64,000 nt of DNA from Carcharhinus amblyrhynchos (Eukaryota), in assembly GCA_965287045.1 (NCBI GenBank), contig OZ336876.1, positions 22,506,001 through 22,570,000 of the forward strand, written 5' to 3'. The position numbers and the translations under genes were made by a program. Below are positions 2,392 through 62,309 of the stretch, piece after piece; positions within the stretch are counted from its first letter, which is position 1; each line of letters begins with the position of its first letter. Below the pieces are notes generated by a model. It made no database searches. It was not told where the DNA came from and worked only from the letters and a program-made list of their open reading frames with translations.

Positions 2392-3422
2392 TAAGAACAT
2401 AAGAACATAAGAAATGGGAGCAGGAGTAGGCCATCCAGCCCTTCGAGCCTGCCCCGCCATTCAATAAGATCATGGCTGATCTGTCGTGGCTCAGTTCCAC
2501 ATTCCCGCCCTCTCCCCATAGCCCTTAATCCCCTCGCTTATCAAAAACCCATCAACCCGCATCTTAAAAATATTTAGCGAGGCAGCCTCCACTACCTCAA
2601 TGGGCAGAGAATTCCAGAGATTCACCACCCTTTGAGTGAAGAAGTTCCTCCTCAACTCCGTTCTAAATCACCCCCACTTTATCTTGAGGCTGTGCCCCCA
2701 GGTCCTACTGTCCTTTCTGAGCGGGAAGAGTCTCTCCACCTCTACCCTATCCATTCCATTCATCATCTTATACGTCTCAATGAGATCTCCCCTCATTCTT
2801 CTAAACTCTAACGAGTACAAGCCTAGTTTATTCAGCCTCTCCTCATAGCTCAACCCCCTCAACTCCGGTATCAGCCTAGTAAACCTCCTCTGCACTCCCT
2901 GCAAGGCCAAAATATCCTTGCGTAAGTGCGGCGACCAAAACTGCACACAGTACTCCAGCTGCGGCCTCACCAATGCCCTATACAGCCGCAGCAAGAACTC
3001 CCTACTTTTATATTCAATCCCCCTCGCTATGAAGGCCAGCATCCCATTTGCCTTCCTGACCACCTGCTGCACCTGCAGGCTGGGTTTTTGTGACTCATGC
3101 ACAAGGACCCCGAGGTCCCTCTGCACCGTCGCATGCTGCAGTTTTTTGCCACGTAAGTAATAGTCCTTCCTACCATTATTCCTACCAAAGTAGACCACCT
3201 CACACTTGCCAACATTAAATTCCATTTGCCATTTCCTGGCCCATTCGCCCAGCCTATCTAGATCCTTCACACTCTCCACACCCTCCGCACAATTTGCCGT
3301 TCCCCCAATCTTGGTGTCATCAGCAAATTTCGACACCATACACTCGGTTCCCTCCTCCACATCATCTAGATAAATGGTAAAAAGCTGAGGCCCCAGCACC
3401 GACCCCTGGGGCACTCCACTAG
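2392..3422 (-). mobile_element. Young 5'-truncated CR1 LINE (RT C-terminus and 3' UTR), nested in an older CR1
   Basis: ORF 2668-3414 has PQGSVLGP, KFADDTK and QFWSPH motifs; (TAAGAACA)n tail at 2392; old CR1 sequence on both flanks (about 2280-2390 and 3423-4020). Confidence 0.95.
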
Positions 3423-4020
3423 GGGCTATGGTTAGATTCTTTCTTGTTGGAGATGGTCACTGCCTAGCACTTGTGTGGCATGAATGTTCCTTCCCATTTA
3501 TCAACCTGTACCTGAAAGTTGTCTGAGTCTTGACATATATGGACATGGATTGCTTCAGTATCTGAGCGTAGTGTAGAACATTGTACAATCATTATTGAAC
3601 ATCCCCACTTCTGATCTTATGATGGGGGGTGGTGGGGTGTGGGGTGAAATCATTGATGAAGCAGCTAAAGATGGATGGGCCTAGGACAGCATCCTTAGGA
3701 ACTTCCGCAGGGATGTCCTAGGAGTGTGATAATTGACCTCCAATGCTCATAAACATCTTCCTTTGTGCTAGTATGACTTCATCTGGTTTTGCTAGAACTC
3801 CGTGCTAATACACTTGCTCAATTATTGCCGCTTGATAGCACTGCTGGCAACACTTTCCATCACTTTACCTGTGATCAAGGGTAGACTGATGAGATAGCAA
3901 TTGGCCAGTTTGGATTTTCCCTTTTTTTTGTGTATGGGACATATCTGGGCAATTTTCCACGTTGCAGGGTAGATACTGGAGTTCAGCTAATTCTGGAACA
4001 TAATTCTTCAGTGCAAGAGC
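3423..4020 (-). mobile_element. Old CR1-clade LINE fragment
   Basis: Aligns by eye to the old element at 50215-51080 (TTGTTGGAGATGGTCA.TGCCT). Confidence 0.7.
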
Positions 4021-4367
4021 AGGGCTCAGCGCTTTTCCAGTTTTCTTTGCAGATTGTGGGAGATGAGTGACACCTTTGGGTGAATTTAAGAGGGGGAGCT
4101 GCTTGCCCAACTTTAAAAACGTCCCCCACTGCCCAACAGACTTCACAAGCTGAGAGCAGGGCTTCTGCCCCTCAGTAGAAGGAAGTCCAACCCTCCAAAA
4201 CTTCCAGCCAATCTGATTGGCTGGAGTCTCCTGAGATCCCAACGGCGGCAGACGTCAGTAGCAGCCTCTAATGAGATTACAATCATTTCCACAGAGACAG
4301 AATTGATATCAGAATGAATTGAATAAAGCTTTTTGTGGAATTGCTGGCATTGGACTGAGGTAGGCAC

Positions 4368-5020
4368 GGTAATAGTCTCACAACACCAGGTTAAAGCCCA
4401 ACAGGTTTATTTAGTAGCAAAAGTCACCAGCTTCTGAAGCGCTGCTCCTTCGTCAGGTAAGTGAGAGTTCTGTTCACGAACAAGGCATATAAAGACACAA
4501 ACTCAATTTACAAAATAATGGTTGGAATGCGAGTCTTTACAGGTAATCAAGTCTTACAGGTAATCAAGTCTTAAAGGTACAGACAATGTGAGTGGAGAGA
4601 GCATTAAGCACAGGTTAAAGAGACGCGTATTATCTCCAAATAGGACAGTTAGTGAGATTTTGCAAGACCAGGCAAGTTGTGGGGGGTTACAGATAGTGTG
4701 ACATGAACCTAAGATCCCGGTTGAGGCTGTTCTCGTGTGTGTGGAATTGCCTGTCAGTCTCTGCTCAGCAACTCTGTGTTGTCATGTGCTGTGAAGGTCG
4801 CCTTGGAGAAGGCTTACCCGAAGATCAGAGGCCGAGTGCCCTTGACCGTTGAAGTTTCCCCAACAGGAAGAGAACACTCTTGCCTGGTGATTGTCGAGCG
4901 GTGTTCATTCATCCATTGTCGTAGCGTCTGCATGGTCTCCCCAATATACCAAGGATGCCTCGGGACATCCTTTCCTGCAGCGTATCAGGTAGACAATGTT
5001 GACCGAGTTGCAAGAGTACA
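4368..5020 (-). mobile_element. Penelope-like element 3' part: GIY-YIG endonuclease remnant and terminal pseudo-LTR with decayed hammerhead
   Basis: Minus strand translates YSCNSVNIVYLIRCRKGCP..WYIGETMQTLRQWMNEHRSTI; terminus reads CTGACGA-A-GGAGC-AGC-GCTTC-AGAAGCTG...AATAAACCTGTTGGGCTTTAACCTGGTGTTGTGAGAC. Confidence 0.85.
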
Positions 5021-5430
5021 GAAACCACAGATAATGTCAGTGGACTCTCTGGAGTCCATTTTGTTAAGGTAGTGTCCATTTCCAAAGTTGCTGTTTGAAA
5101 GGAAAGTGCCCCTCTCCCAACAAGCTTCACAGGCACATGGCAAGACAATAATGCTAAATGCAGGAACAGATAGTTTGGAACTTGATTCCAATCTGATCAA
5201 CTGAGTGTATTGAATTCAAATCATTTTGAATTCTCACACTAGGAACAGGCAAGGTGTTTGCCACAAGGGCTACTAATTAAGCATGTTTTCAATGATTGTG
5301 TGCTTAATAGGTCTGTGACAGTTTGGGCCTGGAGTTTCTGTACAATTTCTGTCCAATAACCTGAGGAGAATCAAATCAAACAGCATGCAACATTACAGAA
5401 TTCTAAATGTGAGTTGCACCCATTGCAACT

Positions 5431-9194: not shown

Positions 9195-9680
9195 TTTTAT
9201 TCTTTTATGGGATGTGGGTGCCATTGGCTAGGCCAGCATTTATTGCCAATCCCTAATTGAACTAGGTGAGGGTGAGCTGCCTCCTTGAACCGCTGCCATG
9301 TGGTGTAGGTACACCTGTAGCACTGTTATGAAGGGAGTTCCAGAATGTTGACCTTGTGAAGGAATGGCGTTCCAAACCAACATGGAGGGGAAATTTCAGG
9401 TGGTGGTGTTCCCATGTACCTGCTGCCTTTGTCCTTCTAGGTGGTAAAAGCTGCAGGGTTGGAAGTTACTGTTGAAGAGTCCTTGATGAGTTGCTGCAGT
9501 GCATCTTGTAGATGGTACCGTGTGTCTGTCATGGATGAAAAGAGAGGTACCCCATCCACAAACAATCAAGTGGGCTGCTTTGTCTTGGATGGTTTAGAGT
9601 TTCTTGAGTTTCATTAAAGCTCCATTCATCCAGGAAAGTGGAGGGTATTCCCTCAAACTCCTGTCTTGTGTCTTGGAGCG
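9195..9680 (-). mobile_element. Old CR1-clade LINE 3' end
   Basis: GGGATGTGGG...GGCTAGGCCAGCATTTATTGCC motif shared with 30165-30430, 50215 and 46480-46700. Confidence 0.75.
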
Positions 9681-9854
9681 AAGTGGATTCTAGGCTCAAT
9701 GGGGACTATCCTGAATCGGACACTCCCTGAGCAATCTCCTTCACTTGAGTTCAAGGTATTCATTTCCCACAGACGTTTATTCTGGGTCTGAGAAAGTCAA
9801 CTGCTTCTCCCCCAAGGATGGCAACTTTTAAAAGTTGTTACATTCTTGTTGTTA

Positions 9855-9910
9855 CAATCTTAAGGCTACAGTAACAACTTTTAAAAGTTGTTACTGTAGC
9901 CTTAAGATTG
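9855..9910. repeat. Perfect 56-bp palindrome with no loop
   Basis: CAATCTTAAGGCTACAGTAACAACTTTT followed directly by its exact reverse complement AAAAGTTGTTACTGTAGCCTTAAGATTG. Confidence 0.97.
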
Positions 9911-11900: not shown

Positions 11901-12487
11901 TATCATGACCTAGAAGCAAATTCACCAATACTGATGAGAAGACTCTCACAACCCCTATTGTGAGCTAGCATACTGAAGTCTCACAACATTGGTGCTCTGG
12001 ACCTTAGTTTAGCAGACCTGGCTGCAGTAGTGAACAATGCTCTTTTGAAGTCTTTACTAAATACACTCTCCTGGCCTGAAGTCCTGGGAGAAGCCTTAGA
12101 AGTGTCCTTTGATCTACAGATCTTGTTGGATGGAAACAGATAAGGATGTTTTGGCTTTCCTCTGATGTTGACTGGTTATTCTAGCTCCCCTTGCGTCTCC
12201 ATGATTCCCCTCTTTTTCTAGGTGACTTAGGCCTCACCTTATAACATTGATGCTATTTCTGCCTCCATGGCTGTTGCTGAATATTTCTGGCATTTTCTGT
12301 TTCTCTCGAATAGCACTTGGGGCTCGGGAGTTGAATTTTGTTTGATAACGCTCCTGCCTTGGTATATTTTACTATATTAAAGGCACTATTTAGAATACAA
12401 GCAATTGTTACTGTTGTTTAAATATTGCAGTGAATATCACACACTAAGTATCAGGATATGGTCTCTTATTCTGAGACATCATGCATA

Positions 12488-13836: not shown

Positions 13837-15172
13837 ATAAGAACATAAGAAATAGGAGCAGGAGTAGGCCATCCAGCCCTTCGAGCCTGCCCCGCCATTC
13901 AGTAAGATCATGGCTGATCTGTCATGTCTCAGTTCCACATTCCCGCCCTCTCCCCATAACCCTTAAACCCCTCACTTATCAAAAACCCATCAACCCGCGT
14001 CTTAAAAATATTTAGCGAGGCAGCCTCCACCACCTCAACGGACAGAGAATTCCAGAGATTCACCACCCTTTGAGTGAAGAAGTTCCTCCTCAACTTCGTT
14101 CTAAACCGCCCCCCCTTTTATCTTGAGGCTGTGCCCCCTAGTCCTACTGTCCTTTCTGAGCGGGAAGAGCCTCTCCACCTCTATCCTATCCATCCCATTC
14201 ATCATCTTATACGTCTCAATGAGATCTCCCCTCATTCTTCTAAACTCTAACGAGTACAAGCCTAGTTTATTCAGCCTCTCCTCATAGCTCAACCCCCTCA
14301 ACTCCGGTATCAGCCTAGTAAACCTCCACTGCACTCCCTCCAAGGCCAAAATATCCTTGCGTAAGTACGGCGACCAAAACTGCACACAGTACTCCAGCTG
14401 CGGCCTCACCAATGCCCTATACAGCTGCAGCAAGACCTCCCTACTTTTATATTCAATCCCCCTTGCTATGAAGGCCAGCATCCCATTAGCCTCCCTGACC
14501 ACCTGCTGCACCTGCAAGCTGGGTTTTTGCGACTCATGCACAAGGACCCCGAGGTCCCTCTGCACCGTCGCCTGCTGCAGTTTATCGCCCCGTAAGTAAT
14601 AGTCCTTCCTACCATTGTTCCTACCAAAGTGGACCACCTCGCACTTGCCAACACTAAATTCCATTTGCCATTTCCTGGCCCATTCGCCCAGCCTATCTAG
14701 ATCCTTCTGCAGACTCTCCACACCCTCTGCGCAATTTGCCGTTCCACCAATCTTGGTGTCATCAGCAAATTTCGACACCATACACTCGGTTCCCTCCTCC
14801 AGATCATCTATATAAATGGTAAATAGCTGAGGCCCCAGCACCGACCCCTGGGGCACTCCACTAGTCACCAACCGCCAATCCGAATAGCACCCATTCACCC
14901 CCACTCTCTGCCTCCTATTTGACAACCAATCCTCTATCCACGCTAACACCCTACCCCCAACTCCATGCCCCCTTACCTTCTGCAATAACCTCTTGTGAGG
15001 TACCTTGTCAAACGCCTTCTGAAAATCAAGGAAGACCACATCCACCGGCTCTCCTCTATCCACCGCCCTAGACACATCCTCATAGAACTTTAATAAATTT
15101 GTCAGACACGACTTCCCCTTAATGAAACCGTGCTGTGTCTGCTCTATCAAGCAATTCCCCTCAAGATGCCTG
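13835..15172 (-). mobile_element. Young 5'-truncated CR1 LINE
   Basis: 349-aa ORF 14101-15150 with RT motifs QHGF..KSCLTNL, DFQKAFDKVPH, GVPQGSVLGP, FADD; near-identical to 2392-3422. Confidence 0.97.
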
Positions 15173-15415
15173 TCTCACTTTATTGCAGCAATTACACTTT
15201 AATAGTGCTGGAAAGTGATTTGAAGTCAGGAAAGGTGCTAAATAAATGAACAACCTTATTATTGTATATTTGCAATGATTTTGAGGCTCAGGAATTTTTC
15301 AAAAATTGAGTATTTCAAAGTATTAAAGCTTTTTTCCAGCTCAATCTTGGAGATCAATTAATCTGAGCAAATAACAAATGAAATAGGATGATGGAAGGCA
15401 ACGAAGACATATCAC

Positions 15416-18760: not shown

Positions 18761-19340
18761 TACAGAGAATGCTGGAAAAGTTCAGCAGGTCTAGCAGCAT
18801 CTGTAAGGCCAGGCAGCAGAGTGAATGTTTTTGAATACTTTTGACTCTTCAGCATTGCCATTTTAACTCAGCACCTTCCTCTCATGTCCACATGTCCATC
18901 CTTGACCTGTTTGTAATGCTCCAGTGAAGCCTGGTGCAAGCTGGAGAAGCAGCATCTCATTTTCTCAATGGACAAATTGTAGCCCCTGAGATTCAATATC
19001 AAGTTTGGCAACTATAGATTGTGACCTTTCTATTCTACCTTAAAGTCCTCTTTATAAAATATCCCATGCATATAATGTCTCAGTGTTACCAACTTCCTCT
19101 CCTCCTGCCCCCCACACCTCCCCCACACCAGGCCATTTGTATTTTGTTCTTAAAGTTACTACATTTTGTTGCAATCTCTCACAGCTAATATCTAACACAT
19201 TTGCCTTCTCTTCAGTTCTGATGAAGACCCAAAAGGACTCTAAGTGTTTTCTCTCCCTTCAGATGTTGGTAGACCAGCTGAGCTTTCCCAGCATCGTCAG
19301 TTCTTGTTTCAGATTCCAGCATCCGGAGTATTTTGCCAAT
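18760..19340 (+). mobile_element. Penelope-like element with inverted 5' pseudo-LTR, GIY-YIG C-terminal remnant and 3' pseudo-LTR with decayed HHR
   Basis: Starts with inverted terminus AATGCTGGAAAAGTTCAGCAGGTCTAGCAGCATCTG; codes HFNS..HMSILDL..SEA.CKLEKQHLIF; ends TTCTGATGAAGACCC..GGACTC...CAGATGTTGGTAGACCAGCTGAG...TCAGATTCCAGCATC. Confidence 0.75.
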
Positions 19341-26559: not shown

Positions 26560-27109
26560 GTAAGCACTATCACAAAAGAGGGCAGATAATGAAAGAAAAA
26601 ATATATATAGGGTTATTGGGATTTACAAAACTACAGGGTCATGTATTATAAAATGTGTTAGTACTACTTTGTACAGAAGATGGCATTGTGGTATTACTGT
26701 ACTGGCAGAAATGTGAAAAAAATCTTACAGACAAAATACTTGGCTCTTTTCCAGAATGCATTGTCAGGCAAGTTGTTCTACTTGTTCCAACTGCCAAGGT
26801 CCTTACTGAAGTCAGCTCATCTGTAAATTGCTAGAAAAGGATTACACATTTTGTCACCTCTTTTTCTAAAAAGAAACAAACCCATCTCTTCCAGTTTTCA
26901 GTGCAACATTGTTTTAAACACCTACTTTTAGTTGATAATACCTAACACCATACATTCTGATTGTTCAGACGTATTTATATTTCTGTGTCAACTTTGTTAA
27001 TTCAGCATTGAAAACAACATCAGTTCAGTGCTCAATAGGCAAATCTTTTCAGAAATATTATCACCTAATGAGTGCCGCACAGTCAGAACTACTGTGGACG
27101 TTGGCAATC

Positions 27110-27760
27110 AGAAACAAAAATAGAAAATACTACTCAAGAGGTCTGGCAGTATCTGTGGAGAGAGAATCAGTGGGTGGGATTTTCCAGTCCCACCTGCCCC
27201 AGGACTTGAAATTCCTGCCCAAGGTCAATAGTCCATTCAATAGTCCATTAGATTGCCTGTCCCACCTTTGATAATTCCCGTGGTGGGGGGACTGGAACAT
27301 TTATTCCAGTGTTAACATTTCAGGTTGATGACCTATTGTCAGAACTGGAAAAAGTTAGACACAGATTTGAAGCAAGTACAGTGGCAGGGAATCTGTTCTG
27401 TGACAGGTTACAAGGCAGGACATATCAAATGATAAATGGGATAACAGTGCAAGGCAAAAGGGAAGGGTAACTGAATAAGTGAAAAAACAAAGTTGGGTCT
27501 GGAAGAGATGCAAATGGTAAAAAAGTCGAATCATTACGTATAGCTGCTTGCTCAAAGGCAAATCATAAAAGTAAAATACAGGCTACATTTGATAGCACTT
27601 GAAATTATGATCTGAAATTGTTGAACTCAATGTTGAGCTCTGAAAACTGTAAAGAGCCTAATTGAAAGCTGAAGTGCTGTTCCTTGGGCTTACATTGAGT
27701 TTCATTGGAACAGTGTAGGAGGCAAAGGGCAAAAAGCTGAGTGAGAGCCAGTGAAATTGC
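27110..27760 (-). mobile_element. Penelope-like element (GIY-YIG C-terminus and pseudo-LTR with mutated HHR), with a MITE-like insert at about 27171-27308
   Basis: ORF 27605-27802 ends LHCSNETQCKPKEQHFSFQLGSLQFSELNIEFNNFRS; minus strand CTGACAA-TAGGT-CATCA-ACCT-GAAA-TG-TT-AAC; insert bounded by inverted TTCCAGTCCC / GGGACTGGAA. Confidence 0.75.
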
Positions 27761-30164: not shown

Positions 30165-30430
30165 TTTTTAGAAAACATTTATGGGATGTGGGCGTGCTGG
30201 CTAGGCCAGCATTTATTTCCCACCTGGAATTGTCCTTGAGAAGGTGGTGGCGAGCAGCCTTTTTGAACCCCTGCAGTCCCTGTGGTGTAGGTACACCCAC
30301 AGTGCTGTTAGGGAGGGAGGTGCAGGATTTTGACTCAGTGACAATGAAGGAATGGCAATATATTTCCAAGCCAGGATGGTGAATGACTTGGTGATGAACT
30401 TTTAGATGGTCGTTTTCCTACAGTCTTTTC
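30165..30430 (-). mobile_element. Old CR1-clade 3' end
   Basis: ORF 30025-30369 SKSCTSLPNSTVGVPTPQGLQGFKKAARHHLLK is a typical CR1 ORF2 C-terminus. Confidence 0.85.
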
Positions 30431-35310: not shown

Positions 35311-36634
35311 GGCCCCTGTCAAGTCAGAATCTTGTTGCCGTTTACACTGGCAGGATCTTACTTGTGCTTGATATGGGGAGTTCTTGCTACCTCAGGGAGG
35401 GCTGATAGCTCAAGATGACTGGGATTTTGTAGTAGGAAATCAGCTAATGGCTATCAATGGTGTGGGTAATGGCTATTCACAGGTAGCAGCTCGATATGGA
35501 GAATGCAATTGCATCCTCTAAATCTCCTATACAGTCTGCAAATACTTCTACTTGTTGCCTATTTTTCTTAGACTAAGGGAAGATGATACAGGTTTAATAA
35601 AGATGGGTCAGGGCCGAAGATTTGAAAACAGTAATCTCTAAAAGATAGCCATTATTAATTTGCATAAAAGCCACCAGGACTTGAGCGCCCCTGCAGGTTT
35701 TTGCTGATGATGGACAAAGATTGAGTAGTAAGTTCCGTAACAAGACAACCCCTCACAATAATTTCAGTTCTGAAACACCATCTTTTGACAACCATTTAGA
35801 TGCTCCGCTCAGATTATAGAATTCAGCCACATTAGCGTGAAAACCCAAGGGCTAATGAGTCTGTGTGATCAAGCCGGAACTTACGCAGTCAGTTTACTGG
35901 AACCATGCTTGATGGGTAAAAAGTAGAACCCTTGTAAAATGTATGGGTAGAAGAAAGACAATTAAAAGTAAAAATGTCAGCAGCCTAAGTTGTAATTACC
36001 CATGTCTGGATGGAGCAGGTGAAGCAGCATATATTGCCAATCCGTAGTTGTCCTGTGAAGGTGATGGGGGGGCCTTCTCCTCAATTTGTTGTAATCCTTG
36101 TGGGGACAGAGTTGCCACAAGGGGATAGGGTAGGGAACTTCAGAATATTAACCCAGAGATGGTGAAGGAACAAACAGCAAAATATATTCTGGAATCAGGA
36201 TGGTCTTTGACTCGGAGGGTGACTTTGAAGTGATGGTGATCCTACAGCATTGTTGCAGTTGGCTTTCTCAGGTGTGCTGGTCACAGGGGAGGGAAATGCA
36301 TTTGAATTAATGTCACTGAGTTGCTGCAATGCATCCTTTAATTCATTCATACTGAAGTGACATATTGAACGGATATATGGTTACTTAGGCAGCCAAAAAG
36401 ACAGATGTTTTCTCATGGAATGGTTAAAGCCTGTTAAAGCTGGGTAGATGTCCTGATGGAAGTGCAATCAGGGGATTGCTTTAATCAGAGCAGAATGCAT
36501 TACGAATAATCCACCTACAATTTTCCCTGACAGACAATGCTAACCCCTTTAGTAAAACTCCTGGCAGCTAGTCCTTTAGTGGCCTCTGATTTCCATTCCC
36601 CAGGGCACAGCAAGCCACCATGATAGAAGAAACT

Positions 36635-36790
36635 TGAAACCAAAAGAGAAAATGCTAGAAAATCTCAGCAAGTCTGGCAGCAACTATAAGGAGAAAAAAG
36701 AGCTGACATTTTGAGTACCGACGGCCCTTTGTCAAAGCTTTGATTTCTTTTGGTATCAGATTCCAGCATCCACGGTAATTTGCTTTTATA
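36635..36790. mobile_element. PLE-terminus-derived fold-back element with most of its right arm deleted
   Basis: Left arm near-identical to 61881-61955; central palindrome TCAAAGCTTTGA; then TTCTTTTGGTATCAGATTCCAGCATC. Confidence 0.75.
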
Positions 36791-36964
36791 GAAAAAACTT
36801 GCTCTGACACATACTACAGTGCCCTGAGGCACGAAAACATTCCCGTCACTATTCTTACAGACCACTTAACAATTGTTTCAGCTCACTAATCTATGTCACT
36901 GCTGCTAAGGATGCCACTCAAAGTAGAGTTGTGAGCCACAAAAGCACCCAAAGTCTAGGCTGGA

Positions 36965-37192
36965 CTAAAAACAAAATACCATGGATGCTGGCAATCTGAA
37001 ATTAAAAACAGATAATTCTGGAAAGACACAGCAATTATGACAGCATCTGTGGATGGAGAAACACCGTTAACATTCTGAATCCATATTACCAGGATCAGGG
37101 TGCTGTAGAAGAGTCACACAGACTTGAACATTAACAGTGTTTCTCTCTCCACAGATGCTGCTAGACCTGCTGAGTTGATCCAGCATTTTCTA
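36965..37192. mobile_element. Older PLE-terminus-derived fold-back element
   Basis: CAGCATCTGTGG..GAGAAACAC.GTTAA pairs with TTAACAGTGTTTCTC..CCACAGATGCTG; decayed HHR CTGTAGA-A-GAGTC-ACACA-GACTT-GAA-CATT. Confidence 0.7.
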
Positions 37193-41309: not shown

Positions 41310-43134
41310 ATATATATACAACGAAGAAGAGACTGGCTAGAGTGAATGTTGGACCATTAGAGGATGAGAGGGGGGGATTTAGTGGTGGGTGACGAGGAAA
41401 TGGCTGAGGCTTTAAGTAAGTTTTTTGTGTCGGTCTTCACGGGGGAGGACACAAATAGTTTGCTGAATATTAAAGATAGAAGGATGGTAGGAGATGAAGT
41501 CCTTAATGCAATTACTGTCACTAGGTAGACTAAGGTGACTGTAGATGGTCAAGTCCCCGGGACCAGATGGAATGCATCCCAGGGTTCTGAAAGAAATGGC
41601 TGAGGTGATAGCGGACGCCTTAGTAATTATTTATCAAAATTCGCTGGACTCTGGGGAAGTGCCGGAAGATTGGAAAATGGCTAATGTTACGCCACTGTTT
41701 AAAAAAGGTAGCAGACAAAAGGCAGGGAATTATAGGCCGGTTAGTTTAACATCCGTAGATGGGAAAATGCTAGAATCCGTCATCAAAGAAGAAATAGCAA
41801 GGCACCTAGAAAAGAATGGTTTGATCAAGCAGACGCAGCACGGATTCGTTAAGGGGAAGTCGTGTTTAACGAATTTATTGGATTTCTATGAGGATGTGAC
41901 TTATGCTGTAGACAGAGGGGAACCGGTGGATGTGGTGTTTTTAGATTTCCAGAAGGCATTTGATAAGGTGCCTCACAAAAGTTTGCTGCAAAAGGTTAGG
42001 GTGCACGGAGTTGGGAGTAAGGTGTTAGCGTGGATAGAGGATTGGCTGTCTAATCGGAAGCAGAGAGTTGGAATCAATGGGTGCTATTCTGGTTGGCAGT
42101 TGGTGACTAGTGGAGTGCCGCAGGGATCAGTGCTGGGGCCTCAACTGTTTACCATTTACATAGATGATCTGGAGGAGGGGGCTGAATGTAGGGTAACGAA
42201 ATTTGCTGATGACACGAAGATGAGTGGAAAAGCAAATTGCGTGGAAGGCGCGGAAAGTCTGCAGAGAGATCTGGATAGGCTGAGCGAGTGGGCGAGGACC
42301 TGGCAGATGGAGTATAATGTTAGCAAGTGTGAGGTTATCCACTTTGGTAGAAATAATAGTAGGAGGGATTATTATTTAAAGGGCGAAAAGCTGCAGCATA
42401 CTACGGTGCAGAGAGACCTGGAGGTCCTTGTGCACAAGTCGCAAAAACCCAGTCTGCAGGTGCAGCAGGTGATCAAGAAGGCGAATGGAATGTTGGCCTT
42501 TATAGCGAGGGGGATAGAATATAAAAGCAGGGAGGTCTTGCTGCAACTGTACAGGACACTGGTGAGGCCGCAACTGGAGTACTGTGTGCAGTTTTGGTCG
42601 CTGCATTTGTGAAAGGATATATTGGCCTTGGAAGGAGTGCAGAGGAGGACACGAGGCTGATACCAGAGATGAAAGGGTTAGCCTATGAGGAGAGATTGAA
42701 TAGACTGGGTCTGTAATTGTTGGAATTTAGAAGGCTGAGGGGGGACCTTATAGAGACATATAAAATAATGAGGGGGCTAGATAGGGTAGAGGTAGAGAGA
42801 TTCTTCCCGCTTAGAAAGGATAGCAGAACTAGAGGGCACAGCCTCAAAATAAGGTGGGGGCAGTTTAGATCGGAGTTGAGGAGGAACTTCTTCACTCAAA
42901 GGGTGGTGAGTCTCTGGAATTCTCTGCCCAATGAAGTGGTGGAGGCTACCTCGCTAAATATATTTAAGTCACGGGTAGATAGGTTTCTGATAGACAGGGA
43001 ATTAAGGCTTATGGGGAGAAAGCGGGAAAGTGGAACTGATCCACTTCAGATCAGCCATGATCTTATTGAATGTTGGGGCAGGCTCGAAGGGCTAGATGGC
43101 CTACTCCTGCTCCTATTTCTTATGTTCTTATGTT
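41310..43134 (+). mobile_element. Young 5'-truncated CR1 LINE (about 1.8 kb) with premature stop
   Basis: 355-aa ORF KSPGPDGMHPRVLKE, NYRPVSLTS, DFQKAFDKVPH, GVPQGSVLGP, FADD; TTCTTATGTTCTTATG tail. Confidence 0.97.
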
Positions 43135-46964: not shown

Positions 46965-47625
46965 TTAGTGTTCTGAATTCTGTTCTTTTATAATGGTGTA
47001 ATGCCTAATGTGATGCAAGGTTATTCCCCTTGCATGTATTTGTTTATTTGAAATAACATATTTCATTGATTTTATCAAATGACATACTGGGACATATGAC
47101 TGATTACTTGACATTTTCTACCATAATTATAGCCTAGAACATATAATATTACAGGGAACACTAAGTATAGCAGTTCATCCTGCCGCAGAATCAATGGTTC
47201 AGAGCAAACCTAGCATTCTTAAGCCCCTGTGAAATTGATATTTTTATTTTATTGAAGACAGTTGAGCCAATGGAATTGAAGCACTTTACCTTTAAATCTA
47301 GAAGTTATGCCTGGTGAGAACTTGTGAATTATCAGTTCACTGTTGGTGATGGAACCTAAATTTCATTGCTGGAGGTATCATATTGTTGCATCATATTGTT
47401 GCATACTTAAAACAGGCTGTGAAAAGGATGCTTATAATACAAGTTGTAAAGGCAAAATCTATGAACATGACGTCATTTTAGGTTTTACTTATTCATCCAT
47501 GGGATATGGGCCTCGCTGGCTGGCCAACATTTATTGTGTGGATATGCCGGCGTTGGACTGGGGTAAACACAGTAAAAAGTCTGACAACACCAGGTTTAAG
47601 TCCAACCGATTTATTTGATAGTAAA

Positions 47626-47663
47626 CTCACTAGCTTTCGAGGTTTCCCTCTTCTTCAGGTGAA
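47626..47663 (-). ncRNA. Minimal type-I hammerhead ribozyme motif (core intact)
   Basis: UUCAC-CUGAAGA-A-GAGG-GAAA-CCUC-GAAA-GC-UA-GUGAG: stem I 5 bp, CUGANGA box, stem II with GNRA loop, GAAA box, palindromic AGCU helix III, UH site = UA. Confidence 0.7.
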
Positions 47664-47710
47664 TGACCTGAAGAAGAGGGAAACCTCGAAAGCTAGTGAG
47701 CTTACTATCA

Positions 47711-47716
47711 AATAAA
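47711..47716 (+). promoter_or_regulatory. Candidate polyadenylation signal AATAAA, PLE-derived
   Basis: First canonical hexamer I can find after the stop at 46964; GU-rich sequence (CTGGTGTTGT..TTTTT) lies downstream. Confidence 0.35.
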
Positions 47717-48149
47717 TCGGTTGGACATAAACCTGGTGTTGTCAGACTTTTTACAGCATTTATTGCCCATCCCAGGCAGTTGAGAATCAACCACATTGCT
47801 GTGGCTCTGGAGTCTCATGTAGGCCAGACTAGGTAAGGGTGGCAAATTTCTTTCCCTAAAAGACATTAGTGAACCAGATGGGTTTTACTCTCAATTGACA
47901 GTGGTTTCATGGTCACCAGTAGATTCTTAATTCCAGATATTTTTACTTGAATTCAAATTCTATCATCTGCTGTGGCAGGATTTGAACCTGGTCCCCAGAA
48001 CATTGGCTGAGCTTCTAGATTAATAGTCCAGCAATAATACTACTAGACCATCACCTCCCCTTCCTTCAATGAGATATATAAGAATTAGCTAAACCTGTGG
48101 GATATTTCCTAGTTTTATGACATCTTGTATAGATTGATCTGAATCACGG

Positions 48150-48654: not shown

Positions 48655-49698
48655 CTCATAGAAGACAGAGGGTGGTAGAGGAGGAAAAATTTTCAGACTG
48701 GAGGCCAGTTACTAGCAGTGTACCATAGGGATCAGTGCTGGGTCCTCTGCTATTTGTGATTTTTATCAATGACTTGGAAGGGGGGACTGAAGGGTGGGTT
48801 AGTAAATTTGCTGATAACACCAGGATTGGTGGAGTAGTGCATGAGGTGGAGGGCTCTTGCAGGCTGTAAAGAGACATTGATAGGATGCAGAGCTGGGCAG
48901 AAAAGTGGCAGATGGAGTTTAACCCTGATAAGTGCGAAGTGATTCATTTTGGTAGGACAAACTTGAATGCGGATTACAGGGTCAAGGGCAGGGTTCTGAG
49001 GAATATGGAGGAACAGAGAGATCTTGGAGTTCGTATCCACAGACCTCTGAAGGTTGCCACTCAAGTGGATAGAGCCGTGAAGAAGGCTTATAGTGTGTTA
49101 GCGTTTATTAACAGGGGGGTTGAGTTTAAGAGCTATGGGGTTATGCTGCAACTGTACAGGACCTTGGTGAGACCACATTTTGAATATTGTGTGCAGTTCT
49201 GTTCACCTTAGTATAAGAAGGATGTGGAAGCATTGGAGAGAGTGCAGAGGAGATTTACCATGATGCTGCCTGGTTTGGAGGGTAGGTCTTATGAGGAAAG
49301 ATTGACAGAACTGGGGCTTTTCTCTTTAGGGTGGAGGAGAATGAGAGGTGACTTAATAGAGGTTTATAAGATGATAAGGGGGATAGATAGATTGGACGTG
49401 CAGAGACTATTTCCTCGGGTGGATGTAGCTGTTACCAGGGTGCATAACTATAAGGTTCATGGTGGGAGATATAGGAGAGATGTCTGAGGTAGATTCTTTA
49501 CTCAGAGTGGTCGGGATGGGGAATGCACTGCCTGCTGTGATAATGGAGTCAAACACTTTAGGAACTTTCAAGTGGTTATTGGATGGGTACATGGAGCACA
49601 CCAGAATGATCGGGAGTGGGATAGCTTGATCTTGGGTTTGGACATAGCTCGGCACAACATTGAGAGCCAAAGGGCCTTTTCTGTGTTGTACTATTCTA
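48655..49698 (+). mobile_element. 5'-truncated CR1 (HER1-like) LINE
   Basis: RT ORFs 48885-49211 and 49224-49487 with internal stops. Confidence 0.93.
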
Positions 49699-52524: not shown

Positions 52525-53732
52525 TAGAACATAGAACATAGAACACTACAGCACAAACAGGCCCTTCGGCCCACGAGTTGCGCCGATCACATCAACACCT
52601 ACCAACCTACAGACCTATCTATAACCCTCAATCTCATTAAACCCCATATACTCATCCAGAAGTCTTTTAAAAGACCCCAGCGAGTTCGCCTCCACCACCA
52701 CTGACGGCAGCCGATTCCATTCACTCACCACCCTCTGTGTGAAAAACTTACCCCTAACATCACTTCTGAACTTCCCTCCTTGCACCTTAAATCTGTGTCC
52801 TCTCGTAGCAACCATTTCAACCCGGGGAAATAGCCTCTGAGAGTCCACCCTATCTATTCCTCTCAACATTTTGTAAACTTCTATCAGGTCGCCTCTCAAC
52901 CTTCGTCTCTCCAGGGAAAAGAGTCCCAGCTCCCTCAACCTAACTTCATAAGGCATGCCTCCCAGTCCAGGCAACATCCTTGTAAATCTCCTCTGTACCC
53001 TCTCAATAGCTTCTACATCTTTCCTATAGTGAGGCGACCAGAACTGCGCACAATACTCTAAATGAGGCCTGACAAGGGTCTTATAAAGTTGCAGCATTAC
53101 CTCCCGACTCCTAAACTCAATCCCTCGATTAATGAAGGCCAGTACACCATACGCCTTCTTGACCACCTCCTCCACCTGCGAGGCCGATTTAAGAGTCCTG
53201 TGGACCCGGACCCCTAGATCCTTCTGCTCTTCAACACTACTCAGACTTCTGCCCTTGATAGTGTACTCGTTCATCCCGTTGGTTCTGCCAAAATGGACGA
53301 CTACACATTTATCCGCGTTGAAGTCCATCTGCCACTTCTCCGCCCAGTCCTGCATCCTATCTATGTCCTGCTGCAACTTTTTCCATCCTTCCAGACCATC
53401 CACAACACCACCGACCTTAGTGTCATCAGCGAACTTACTTACCCATCCCTCCACTTCCTCATCCAGGTCATTTATGAAAATGACAAACAACAAGGGTCCC
53501 AGAACAGATCCTTGAGGCACTCCGCTGGTGACTGACCTCCATTCAGAAAAAGCCCCATCCACAACCACTCTCTGCCTTCTGCAGGCAAGCCAATTCTGGA
53601 TCCACAAGGCCAAAGGCCCTTGGATCCCATGCCCTCTCACCTTCTCAAGAAGTCTTGCATGGGGGACCTTATCAAACGCCTTGCTGAAGTCCATGTACAC
53701 CACGTCCACGGCACTTCCTTCGTCAATGTGTT
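52525..53732 (-). mobile_element. Very young 5'-truncated CR1 (HER1-like) LINE with ORF open to its natural stop
   Basis: 378-aa uninterrupted ORF 52615-53751 (DFSKAFDKVPH, GVPQGSVLGP, FADD, FFTQRVVSEWNRLP); (TAGAACA)n tail. Confidence 0.97.
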
Positions 53733-56399
53733 CAGTCAATGTGTTCGTCAATGTGTTCTTAAGAGATAGCTGCTAAGACACTAAAGATACCCTCTTCAGA
53801 GTTGGCTGATAACATTTGGTGAGAATCAAGTGTACACCAGGTCTATTAAGATAAAAGCTGAACACGTCTGGGTGCTGTTGCACCACCCCAGCATGTCAAA
53901 ATTACACTTTTCAACTTTCATTAGCAGTCATGCAACATGGTCCATCACTCATGCATCTCATCTAAGAGGGGGAGAGGGTGGTGAAACTGTCTCCAGCAAT
54001 AAGGCAAAACAGGGGACAGTGAACAAGCAGCCCTGTTTACAGCTAGCTGATGTCCTTGCTAAAGAAGTCTATAAGGGGTATACATAGACCAGATAATTTC
54101 ACTGCACCGCCTCCCACAATGTATCTGGGCACAATGCACACTGGAGAATAACTCTTCTATTTTAACTCTCTGGTGCAAGCAGAATGGTAAATAGGGTGGG
54201 CTGAGTGACAGGACAATTTTGAACTAGACAAATTGATTAACCCCTTGCAGCAAGAACAACATCACAACCACTGTCACTTCTCATATCTACTATCCCCCCA
54301 ACCACTGTAACCCCACTTCCCTCAGTCAGGTAGCATTCGTATTGACCGAGGCAGTAGAAGGACTTTCCTTGCTCTTTGTTTATTACTGCTATGAGATTTT
54401 CTACCAACTGGAGTTTCCCACAAGGTCAGCACAAACCCAGGCAAAGGGCATGTTTTTGATTGCCAGTGAAATCAGGCAATGAATGATCATAATGGTTCTG
54501 AACCACAAGCTCGCTAACCTCCAGGCTAACATTCTCATTTGTTTTGCTCTGCACCAGGGATTCAAAAGTAGAAAATAACCCATTGGCTCTCTCAAGCCAA
54601 TTCATGAGATAATATGAAGGAACTGATAGATATTTTCAGGGCCTCCATGTATATGGAAAATGGTGATTCAAATCTAAGTATTCAAATCAAAACTTCAAGC
54701 AAAAAAATCATTGCTGTGGCATTTTAACACTAGTAATGAGGGAGATGCTTTTATTGGATGTTATTCATGTTTTTTCAAAGGAGTAAAGAATCATAAGGAG
54801 CAATTAGTGTCATTTCTAAAGCAATAGGTCACAACTCATGGATCCACTGTTTCAGAAGGTAATTGGGTCATGAATGAAGACTGTTTCTTGAATACAATTC
54901 ATTCAGATTTTTTGTAATCATTCCACACCTGAGGCCATTAAATAACATGTAAACATCCATGGACTGAACAGCAAACAATCTAAGAGAAAAGGAAATATTG
55001 TAGGGCATTTTGCACATTTTTTCTACATGATCATCTAATTATATGGACTTTTTTTTTAACGTGGAAACCATTTTTAGTCACATAGGATCAGATTAGGCAC
55101 CCTCCTGATTTGACCAACTGCTGAATATCTCCAGGGTGAGCCTAGATGAGGGAAAAAGAGAAAAGTTAGCATTTAAATATTGCCTTTTGTGACTTCATAA
55201 CATTGCAAAGCATTTCACTGCCGATGATGTTTTGGAGGTTATTTTAACTCCATGAATGGGTAGGTTTGGCTTGCGTAGGAGAATAAAAAGTTAAAAGTCT
55301 GAAACAGGAAGCCAACCTATCTCAAACAATTCACCTCCAGTTTTAACAGAGGTTGGACAAGGGGTTGCTGAACATGCTCCCCCCCCGGTTTTCAGGTGGT
55401 GGGCTAGTTACTTACATTTTCTGATGAGCAGTGTGCTGTGATTTTATCAGGGATTTTATCTTTAACAGCAGTAGGCCAGGTTTTCCTGGCCTCAGGAAAT
55501 CCAGCAGGCTTTGAAACCATGAGGTGAGTGCATTTGCGGAACTACTTGTGGGTCAGGAGTGTTTCCTCCAGATCCAAGAAGCCACTCAACAAACCTTCCC
55601 TACTGTGATCCGCCTGCTTTGCCCCATTTCCCCTCTGCCTTCAGCCTACCCAGACCATCAACTAACCATCTACCCTCCCAAGTGACAACTGATTTCCCCT
55701 ACCATCTGCCTCCCTAGTAGATGGAATTGGATTGCCTGACCATTATCTATTCTTCCCAGGAGCAGACCCTCACTGATCACTACCACTCCGCAATCTCTCT
55801 TACCTGACCTACCCACTGTCAACTCAACTGTAACCATGTGCTGCAGAATTTCCTGTCCGACAGCGGCTGTGGATGAGAAACCTACAGAATTTTCTTTGAG
55901 AAACATCCCGAATGTACCAAGTGCTGGAAAGTGCGATTACACTAGCTAGTTGTTTTTCAGCCAATTTTGACGTGATGGTGGCATATCCTCCTCCTGTTCC
56001 AAAATTTTCTTCTTTGATTCTATGTAAAGTTTGAACGATAAATATTAAATTCACTATCCGGTCCAAACAAGCTACATCTCTATTAGGACTATTATAATAT
56101 ATCTATCCATTGTTATATCTGTATTATTTATTTTGTAAATTCTCTAAATTCATATATACAAAACTCATTTCTAAGCTCAATTTTCAGAACCATGATTTTT
56201 ATTCTTCTTCTTGGCTTTATCGTTTTATATTTGACATCCCTTGTCTTTTTTACAACCATGATTTTATTTCACTCATAGTCTATATATCTTTCTTTCTCCT
56301 GCGATATTTCAGAACATCAGACTATCTATTTTAAAAGGCTCCGTGTCCATTGAAATGACTGTAAGGATTCTGCTGCTGATCTCTCTCAGATCTGGCTTT

Positions 56400-61575: not shown

Positions 61576-61880
61576 TTCCATTGCTCTCCAGTAGTTACTA
61601 ATGGTTAAGGCACTATCAGACAATGCAGTTTGTACACTCACATATTATTCAGATAAGATATGTACATTCACATCCATATTCTTGATTCAAGTTTTGGCTT
61701 TGAAAAGTCTGCAACAGTATAGTGAAACCAATCTTAATTAGTTGGAGGAATAATCAGTCAGTCATTAACCATAGGAAAGGTAGTTTGCATTTTAATAGCT
61801 TCGCAAGTATATGTCCAAAAAGATCATTTGCATTTTGTTGATCTCACCAAAGCTAGCACAGACATGATTAGCTCAGGACA

Positions 61881-62066
61881 CAAAAGAGCAAATGCTGGAA
61901 AATCTCAGCAGGTCTGGCAACATCTGTAAGGAGAGAAGAGAGCTGACATTTCGAGACTCGAAACGTCAGCTCTTTTCTCTCCTTACAGATGCTGCCAGAC
62001 CTGCTGAGATTTTCCAGTATTTTCTCCTTTGGTTTCAAATCTCAGCATCTGCAGTAATTTGCTTTT
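61881..62066. mobile_element. PLE-terminus-derived fold-back element (75-bp arms)
   Basis: 61881-61955 versus 61957-62031: 6 mismatches, 1-nt loop; right arm extends to CAGCATCTGCAGTAATTTGCTTTT. Confidence 0.9.
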
Positions 62067-62309
62067 ATCCAACAACTAGCTCAGGGTCTTTGTAATACAA
62101 CATGTATTTGCAGGAAAGAAAAAGATCATCTGGCTTTTCAACTCAATGTTGTTTTATACAAAAAGTGTCCACTTTGGGTTTATACTTTATAAGTTTATAT
62201 TCACAGTTTGCACATTTGTGTTGCGTGAGTGTGACACAATGTACTGATAAAATTCCCTCTCGTGCTGGATAAGAGTACTTGCAAATGCTAACACCTAATC
62301 AGCATGTAC

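Follow-up and report, generated by a model that had tools for sequence, protein, structure and literature searches.

The element at positions 47537-47753 of the window (the whole stretch of 64,000 nucleotides of Carcharhinus amblyrhynchos DNA analysed here) is probably a one-off insertion product of a Penelope-like element (PLE), by whichever route it arose. It consists of a target site duplication (TSD), a tail followed by the end of a PLE pseudo-LTR (pLTR), an inverted pLTR end without the tail and the second copy of the TSD, with no body between the two arms. Our preferred explanation, to which we give about even chances, is that the RT-endonuclease of a Neptune-like PLE produced an insertion that is complete, if miniature, via twin priming. 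Every component of the unit is known, and as a locus it is a routine PLE product.

Results

The inserted unit and its target site

The two arms of the unit (47572-47660 and 47666-47754) are 89 bp each and identical at 87 of 89 positions, with mismatches at 47599 and 47625, and they are separated by a 5-nt loop at 47661-47665. The alignment of the arms and their fold bore out the arm length, the two mismatches and the loop described in an earlier, sequence-only reading of this DNA. The outermost arm pair, at 47754, is also the first base of the right TSD. As RNA, the unit was predicted to fold at -166.9 kcal/mol (z -26), a stability reached by none of 200 shuffles, and as DNA it would also form a strong hairpin (-102 kcal/mol).

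Direct repeats of 12 bp with one mismatch flank the unit; the left copy (47525-47536, plus strand) is AT-rich and contains ATT, and the right copy lies at 47754-47765 on the same strand. When the flanks were compared with an uninterrupted paralog, the left flank ended at 9245 and the right flank began at 9234, so both repeats cover one and the same 12-bp stretch, 9234-9245. The assignment is borne out by a second paralog near 30207, and the same TSD search at random site pairs succeeded in 7 of 1500 trials. The repeats are a true TSD at an AT-rich site, and the empty paralog at 9234-9245 confirms the 12-bp TSD; the single insertion event that had been read from the sequence earlier is also supported.

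From left to right, the first part of the unit is a 35-nt piece (47537-47571, minus strand) that is present on this side only and the end of which is the presumed distal RT start site. It is followed by the left arm and the loop (47572-47665, minus strand), a 3' segment of the pLTR in PLE sense orientation with its 5' limit at -7/-8 relative to the hammerhead C3; the loop belongs to this minus-strand pLTR and supplies the 5' strand of stem I. The right arm (47666-47753, plus strand) is an inverted, tail-less copy of the pLTR 3' segment, which begins 2 nt above C3 and extends as far as the point at which the other arm passes into its tail, the presumed proximal RT start site. The inversion junction is at 47665/47666, with a microhomology of 0-1 nt. 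Both arms read outward from the centre in PLE sense, the arrangement of a head-to-head inverted pLTR.

There was no RT-EN ORF in the unit, so it is an insertion product and not an autonomous element. The open sense frame across arm and tail yielded 0 of 10 candidates at E<=10 in a protein search. No internal promoter was found in the unit, a TATA-like motif at -35 being absent, and the 64-kb window contains a single copy of it.

The unit lies in a tRNA-type SINE-like repeat with approximate ends at 47489-48061 (minus strand), which has an A-box-like sequence at 48050 and a B box at 47988, and shares its 3' tail with the repeats at 9197 and 30181. A T4 run at 47861 in this host repeat precedes the unit, and ARAGORN found no tRNA. 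The host repeat may resemble the shark SacSINE1. A search for host genes gave no Pfam match in 131 ORFs (29152-63897) of the 276 non-repeat ORFs.

Two other classes of hairpin were considered and rejected for the unit. Its inverted repeats are not terminal on both sides, as the left arm starts 35 nt inside the unit, which does not fit a MITE. As a microRNA precursor, its best Rfam match scored 72.9 bits against a cut-off of 200, and all 20 matches were below the gathering score. Pattern scans of a prokaryotic genome collection for host-contaminant contigs bearing the unit gave 0 matches, a result that is uninformative on a shark repeat.

A related PLE in the same window

The terminus of the unit is shared with a GIY-YIG PLE at 4334-5036 (minus strand), which is probably Neptune-like and is 5'-truncated and frame-broken. 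Positions 47537-47636 match 4334-4433 of this element with 79% identity (E 7e-18), and the homology extends to about 47666/4464. The homology of the arms to a PLE terminus, as claimed earlier, was upheld, but its range had been drawn too narrowly: the unpaired 35 nt at 47537-47571, previously left uninterpreted, match the very last part of the PLE at its 3' end (about 4334-4367). PLE insertions have a tail of 30-40 nt on one end only (PMC3846280, PMC8557442, PMC11167929, PMC8969392). As the 35-nt piece is both one-sided and homologous to the PLE end, we read it as a PLE tail. Judged by its 79% identity, the PLE at 4334-5036 is a relative of the unit and not its parent.

The coding fragment of this PLE matches shark proteins at 74-94% identity (12 of 13 candidates), among them proteins of Mustelus asterias and Scyliorhinus torazame. 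Pfam identified the GIY-YIG domain in two of three tested homologs, and full RT-EN relatives were found; three short GIY-YIG pieces of the window itself gave 0 Pfam matches. A CX4CxxC linker, which falls outside the fragment in the window, was read by eye in the homologs P0004 and P0010, and a pattern search for it in the homologs gave no match, the spacing in the pattern being too wide. A CX2-5CxxC linker and RT phylogeny define the PLE clade, and the linker marks Neptune/Nematis and not Poseidon (PMC8557442).

The hammerhead of the PLE is degenerate, with a damaged core and C3 at 4456. A TATA-like motif is present at 4491 and a TCACT initiator-like motif has its A at 4462 (-6), 29 nt downstream of the TATA-like motif; the background for this arrangement is 5 of the 171 TCACT sites in the window. 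The long arm of the unit ends near the position that corresponds to this A. A search around the PLE for a TSD or an inverted arm turned up nothing convincing. Neither the frame nor the N-terminus comparisons demonstrated a tail and hammerhead at the 5' end of the ORF in this PLE family; when the N-termini of six full-length relatives were compared with four termini, 1 of 24 comparisons scored above all 200 shuffles, with a low score of 28.

On the minus strand, 47537-47615 (the arm end and the tail) was predicted to form a stem-loop in which the tail start is on the 3' side. In the related PLE the outer helix of this structure is retained and the interior folds differently. By these predictions it is possible that the stem-loop is the counterpart of the one at which RT starts in the anole element.

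Three further observations were made on this PLE family. Within the 3' region of the PLE there is a short tandem duplication of about 18 bp (4533-4575). On the plus strand, antisense to the PLE, 4453-4464 and 47655-47666 resemble a splice donor with its boundary exactly at the hammerhead C3; the PLE sequence is a full consensus match, and the likeness may merely mirror the hammerhead sequence. Pieces matching the protein of this PLE also occur in named shark host proteins (P0006, P0028 and P0032; NOXP20-like, XRCC5 isoform and PPP1R12A-like), which suggests exonisation events or annotation artefacts.

Hammerhead motifs

A descriptor for minimal hammerheads, based on PMC4209133, found only two sites in the 64 kb, with C3 at 47658 (minus strand) and 47668 (plus strand); the simulated background was 0.03 matches per 64 kb (30 simulations). 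The minimal type-I hammerhead core that had been noticed on each strand was recovered in this way. Both sites contain the core, the extra nucleotide, a stem II with a G-C closing pair, the palindromic 15.2-16.2 positions and a UH cut site. The minus-strand sequence (47625-47664, C3 at 47658) is complete, with a 4-bp stem II and a 6-bp stem I, and its predicted cut lies between 47631 and 47630. The plus-strand core (47668-47695) is 5'-truncated, with a stem I of 2 bp only. Stem I of a minimal type-I hammerhead is taken to comprise at least 4 base pairs, a number that the minus copy has and the plus copy does not. The full stem I reported for the minus copy was thus confirmed at six pairs, while the supposed stem-I mismatch of the plus copy proved to be the inversion junction, which leaves two contiguous pairs.

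With the minus arm folded alone, hammerhead stems I and II had a pairing probability above 0.97, and for stem I of the plus copy the probability was 0.002. In the full unit the hammerhead stems had a pairing probability of 0.0 on either strand, and forcing the hammerhead fold cost 57-58 kcal/mol. On either strand there is a single motif, which would be transcribed later than its complement, and in prefix folding the motif was almost completely paired on emergence. When two copies of the minus motif were cofolded, one monomer-like stem I persisted and no clear active-dimer fold emerged, a result that is uninformative on dimer activity. The scan with Rfam hammerhead models, suggested earlier as a check, detected neither copy: there were 0 matches at gathering in the window, and no hammerhead family was among the 20 matches at E<=10. 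These models may miss hammerhead forms without helix III.

Minimal hammerheads need a second copy on the same strand and are weak even as dimers (PMC4209133). As the two motifs of the unit lie on opposite strands, they cannot form such a dimer with each other. The hammerhead motif of the anole PLE needed protein (PMC11167929), and among Xenopus retrozyme dimers one of nine was cleaved (bioRxiv 10.64898/2026.07.22.740005). Ribozyme activity in place is unlikely according to the folding models, because the motif would be sequestered by its complement and the plus copy lacks stem I. The hammerheads are better seen as passengers of the pLTR, which would be zipped into an 89-bp duplex in any read-through transcript and should not cleave; the RNA product of the unit would likely be a long hairpin. 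The difference in stem II between the unit and the PLE hammerhead at 4456 is most simply explained by divergence of pLTR subfamilies and not by selection on the palindrome.

A second PLE-like terminus and its palindromes

A scan of the whole window brought up further palindromes. Six loci in the window carry another terminus (family B), with a hammerhead-like motif and a one-sided extension of about 31-39 nt. Family B was assigned as PLE-like by its architecture, and no coding partner for it was found in the window. In sequence it is unrelated to the terminus of the unit, the score between the two being reached by 152 of 500 shuffles. One of its subfamilies has the U3-A8 core variant described in PMC4209133.

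Head-to-head palindromes were present at three of the six family-B loci. The first (36623-36801) is flanked by a 14-bp TSD with one mismatch and consists of a tail-less arm, an internally deleted second arm and a tail. It has the U3-A8 hammerhead variant, and its position-3 bases, 36735 and 36740, are spaced 4 nt apart. Its centre (36736-36739) is a self-complementary 4-mer that gives the 5' strand of stem I to both strands, as expected for the annealing of two identical cDNA ends. About 85 nt are missing from its right arm, at 36743/36744. The second (61869-62085) has arms at 61881-61955 and 61957-62031, identical at 69 of 75 positions, and a tail on the right. The centre between these arms (61881-62031) falls within stem II, which leaves both arms without a full hammerhead; a TSD-like repeat of 9-11 bp, offset by a few bases, was found for 61881-62070. 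The third (36961-37191) is older, with its tail on the left, 61 of 88 arm positions identical and a centre at about 37099-37102. Its position-3 bases are about 4 nt apart (37098/37103), its left arm is degenerate towards the centre, its score against a reference copy being equalled by 9 of 1000 shuffles, and no TSD was found for it. Arm identity indicates that the palindromes differ in age (69/75 and 61/88 in family B, 87/89 in the unit).

The non-palindromic family-B termini are at 18764-18854, 19218-19336 and 27087-27342, the last being interrupted at about 27167-27300 by other sequence. Two of the three have a branch-point-like motif, a pyrimidine tract and a CAG ending 2 nt above C3. Family B shows a splice-acceptor-like motif and not a TATA box above its hammerhead, in which it resembles Penelope of D. 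virilis.

Taking both termini together, four of the eight PLE-terminus loci in this one window are palindromic, with four different junctions, and the other four have no inverted partner; the count of eight omits the weak profile matches at 48801-48826 (E 0.46), 12240-12302 (E 0.02) and 42532-42554 (E 0.78). In three of the four palindromes, one of these three being degenerate, the centre is at most 9 nt from the 5' edge of the hammerhead. The position-3 spacing in the unit is 9 nt.

Discussion

The tail, the inverted pLTR and the TSD support one of the two alternatives that the sequence-only reading had offered, an extreme inverted PLE insertion. The other, a retrozyme-like unit with working ribozymes on both strands, found no support, as the motifs are on opposite strands and sequestered and the plus copy has no stem I.

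Both outer junctions of the unit have the orientation of first-strand cDNA starts, with target 3' ends running into PLE-RNA antisense. In vitro, the anole PLE protein nicks and extends both target strands with a preference for ATT; its template is uncleaved RNA, and RT begins there at two internal sites flanking the tail (PMC11167929). By analogy, two nicks 12 nt apart could each have primed one short cDNA, one starting at the tail end (47537) and the other at the tail start (47753/4). Each cDNA, about 90-130 nt long, would have crossed the uncut hammerhead and reached a fixed template end a short way above it, where it ran off the 5' end of the RNA; the two would then have been joined head to head. 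Both arms pass through the predicted cut site, so the template would have been uncut. The tail end is 94 nt and the tail start 59 nt past the predicted cut; for the anole element, subtraction of positions given in PMC11167929 places the 111-118 site, one of the two start sites, at 85-92 nt.

The fixed template end could be a transcription start, marked by the TCACT initiator-like motif with its A at -6. The same pair of TATA and TCACT-like motifs occurs in rotifer pLTRs (PMC3846280). A run-off start at this site is suggested by motifs in one relative of 79% identity. The start of Penelope in D. virilis is separated from helix I by 46 nt plus a 75-nt intron, about 120 nt in all (PMC2377424, PMC4209133), so a start just above the hammerhead is not universal.

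Points against twin priming are that the palindromic loci are four among eight in a single window, that the centre of 61881-62031 is inside stem II, that 36961-37191 has a degenerate left arm and no TSD, and that family B, assigned by architecture, has a splice-acceptor-like motif above its hammerhead. The bottom-strand junction of the unit has no adjacent ATT, which also counts against this route. A fixed template end would give a shared centre in independent insertions too; a shared centre is therefore no proof of a self-propagating family, and only the genealogy of the arms separates one-off insertions from self-propagation.

In its layout of inverted pLTR, tail and TSD, the unit is typical of PLEs (PMC8557442). 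For example, Pen2a of the rotifer Adineta has an inverted pLTR, a 31-bp tail and a TSD of 9-10 bp, with an ORF in the middle (PMC3846280). The insertions described for EN+ PLEs (Pen2a/Pen2, PMC3846280; PMC8557442; D. virilis, PMC2377424) share with the unit the head-to-head pLTR ends, a 30-40-nt tail on one end, a TSD and a short overlap or palindrome at the junction, and TATA and TCACT-like motifs in the pLTR are a further likeness. The unit differs from them in having no ORF or body between arms of about 90-130 nt each and a centre pinned at the hammerhead edge, and its TSD, at 12 bp, is longer than the 8-10 bp of the rotifer insertions.

Poseidon from Anolis carolinensis (PAc, PMC11167929) is similar to the unit in its two RT starts bracketing the tail, its AT-rich target with ATT, a template read through the uncut hammerhead and the distance from cut to start. 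The shark relative, however, appears Neptune-like by the CX4CxxC linker of its homologs, whereas PAc is a Poseidon, and the unit has no ATG at stem II. Body-less palindromic products are not described for PAc in the text consulted; the mapping of RT starts and insertion ends in that paper may include them.

The minimal hammerheads of metazoan PLEs (PMC4209133) have the same core as those of the unit, the extra nucleotide before stem II, the G10.1-C11.1 pair, the palindromic 15.2-16.2 positions and no helix III. Schistosoma has pairs of minimal hammerheads, one motif on each strand and 100-700 bp between them, which have been ascribed to truncated PLEs (PMC4209133). Unlike these, the cores of the unit are 9 nt apart inside a perfect hairpin and one of them is without stem I. 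Non-LTR retrozymes (bioRxiv 10.64898/2026.07.22.740005) are, like the unit, non-coding and pLTR-derived, with type-I hammerheads, and they occur in a chondrichthyan. They are direct tandem repeats with at least two hammerheads on the same strand, whereas the unit is an inverted pair with one motif per strand and so does not fall under the same-strand tandem definition.

Instead of two joined cDNAs, a single cDNA could have been primed at the tail end, run to the template end, folded back with the 5-nt loop and copied itself. Cutting or resolution of the second arm at the tail start would then have let it join the other nick. We consider this unlikely as the actual route, even if it accounts for the anatomy of the unit nearly as well. 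The 5-nt loop and the near-identical arms are the remnants expected from it. Self-priming on an antisense template at palindromic junctions, in place of joined cDNAs, was proposed in PMC3846280, and EN-mediated resolution has been proposed as the origin of the tail (PMC8557442). However, the junction of the unit offers only 0-1 nt of pairing for priming, and a second precise event would be needed at the tail start, where twin priming can call on the internal initiation seen in vitro (PMC11167929).

A self-propagating, non-autonomous palindromic family (retrozyme-like or a retro-MITE), mobilised in trans by a Neptune protein, is also conceivable and in our judgement quite unlikely; its templates would be read-through transcripts that keep the tail and the start sites. 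The unit does retain the tail and the pLTR end, its arms are young (87/89) and differ by 21% from the sole PLE in the window, and recurrent centres at the hammerhead edge would also be expected from master copies. Short palindromes of this kind are probably abundant in shark assemblies. Rotifer pLTR sequences alone mobilised cargo in trans (PMC3846280), and non-autonomous PLE derivatives are known (PMC8557442; bioRxiv 10.64898/2026.07.22.740005). Set against this, there is one copy in 64 kb, no promoter inside the unit and a T4 stop in the host SINE before it, the hairpin would block both ribozymes and the four palindromes have four different junctions. The copying of read-through RNA also gives no obvious reason for a 5' junction exactly at the tail start.

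An extended form of this idea, which we likewise hold to be quite unlikely, is that PLE-dependent palindromic mini-elements in shark genomes serve as their own templates. The Neptune protein would recognise the tailed hairpin RNA and copy it whole, and in several unrelated families the hammerhead edge would set the position of the centre. If true, such self-templating mini-elements would form a class of retro-mobilised hairpins separate from the tandem retrozymes and would continually supply perfect double-stranded RNA, and any action of their ribozymes would require unwinding or the help of protein.

It is very unlikely that the unit began as an ordinary inverted PLE insertion of greater length and later lost its unstable palindromic centre by deletion. 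Inverted terminal repeats of variable size are the commonest form of Penelope in D. virilis (PMC2377424), the unit would form a strong DNA hairpin (-102 kcal/mol) and palindromes in this window do lose sequence, as shown by the roughly 85 nt lost at 36743/36744 and by 61881-62031, the centre of which is inside stem II. However, later deletion gives no reason for three of four centres, in two unrelated families, to be at most 9 nt from the same landmark.

It is highly improbable that the unit is an assembly or read artefact (a fold-back chimera), or a hairpin of the MITE or microRNA type that owes nothing to PLE transposition. The assembly does have a gap of 136 N in the window, and the hairpin draws matches from Rfam microRNA models, none of which reaches its gathering score, but read chimeras do not make a TSD proven by an empty paralog, two arm mismatches and a one-sided tail, and the inverted repeats of a MITE would be terminal on both sides.

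The value of the unit is that of a clean footprint of PLE integration. The origin of the head-to-head inversions and of the one-sided tail is still called unresolved (PMC8557442, PMC3846280). If body-less palindromes centred at the hammerhead edge are common, both RT start sites, the stagger of the nicks and the template 5' end could be read from the genome, and the choice between twin priming and self-priming could be decided. In shark introns, such palindromes might in addition give rise to much perfect hairpin RNA, and they could mislead the annotation of MITEs and microRNAs. No description of a body-less form with its centre at the hammerhead edge was found in the open-access literature searched, and this is not evidence of novelty.

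Several other features of the window were recorded. A perfect 56-bp palindrome without a loop is located at 9855-9910 and is preceded by a 20-bp copy of its central part (9822-9841); the searches run on 9822-9910 gave no relation to either PLE terminus. The assembly gap mentioned above spans 2003-2138. Four ORFs with a Pfam RVT_1 domain, at 2668-3453, 14104-15174, 41545-42609 and 52618-53772, are probably LINE fragments.
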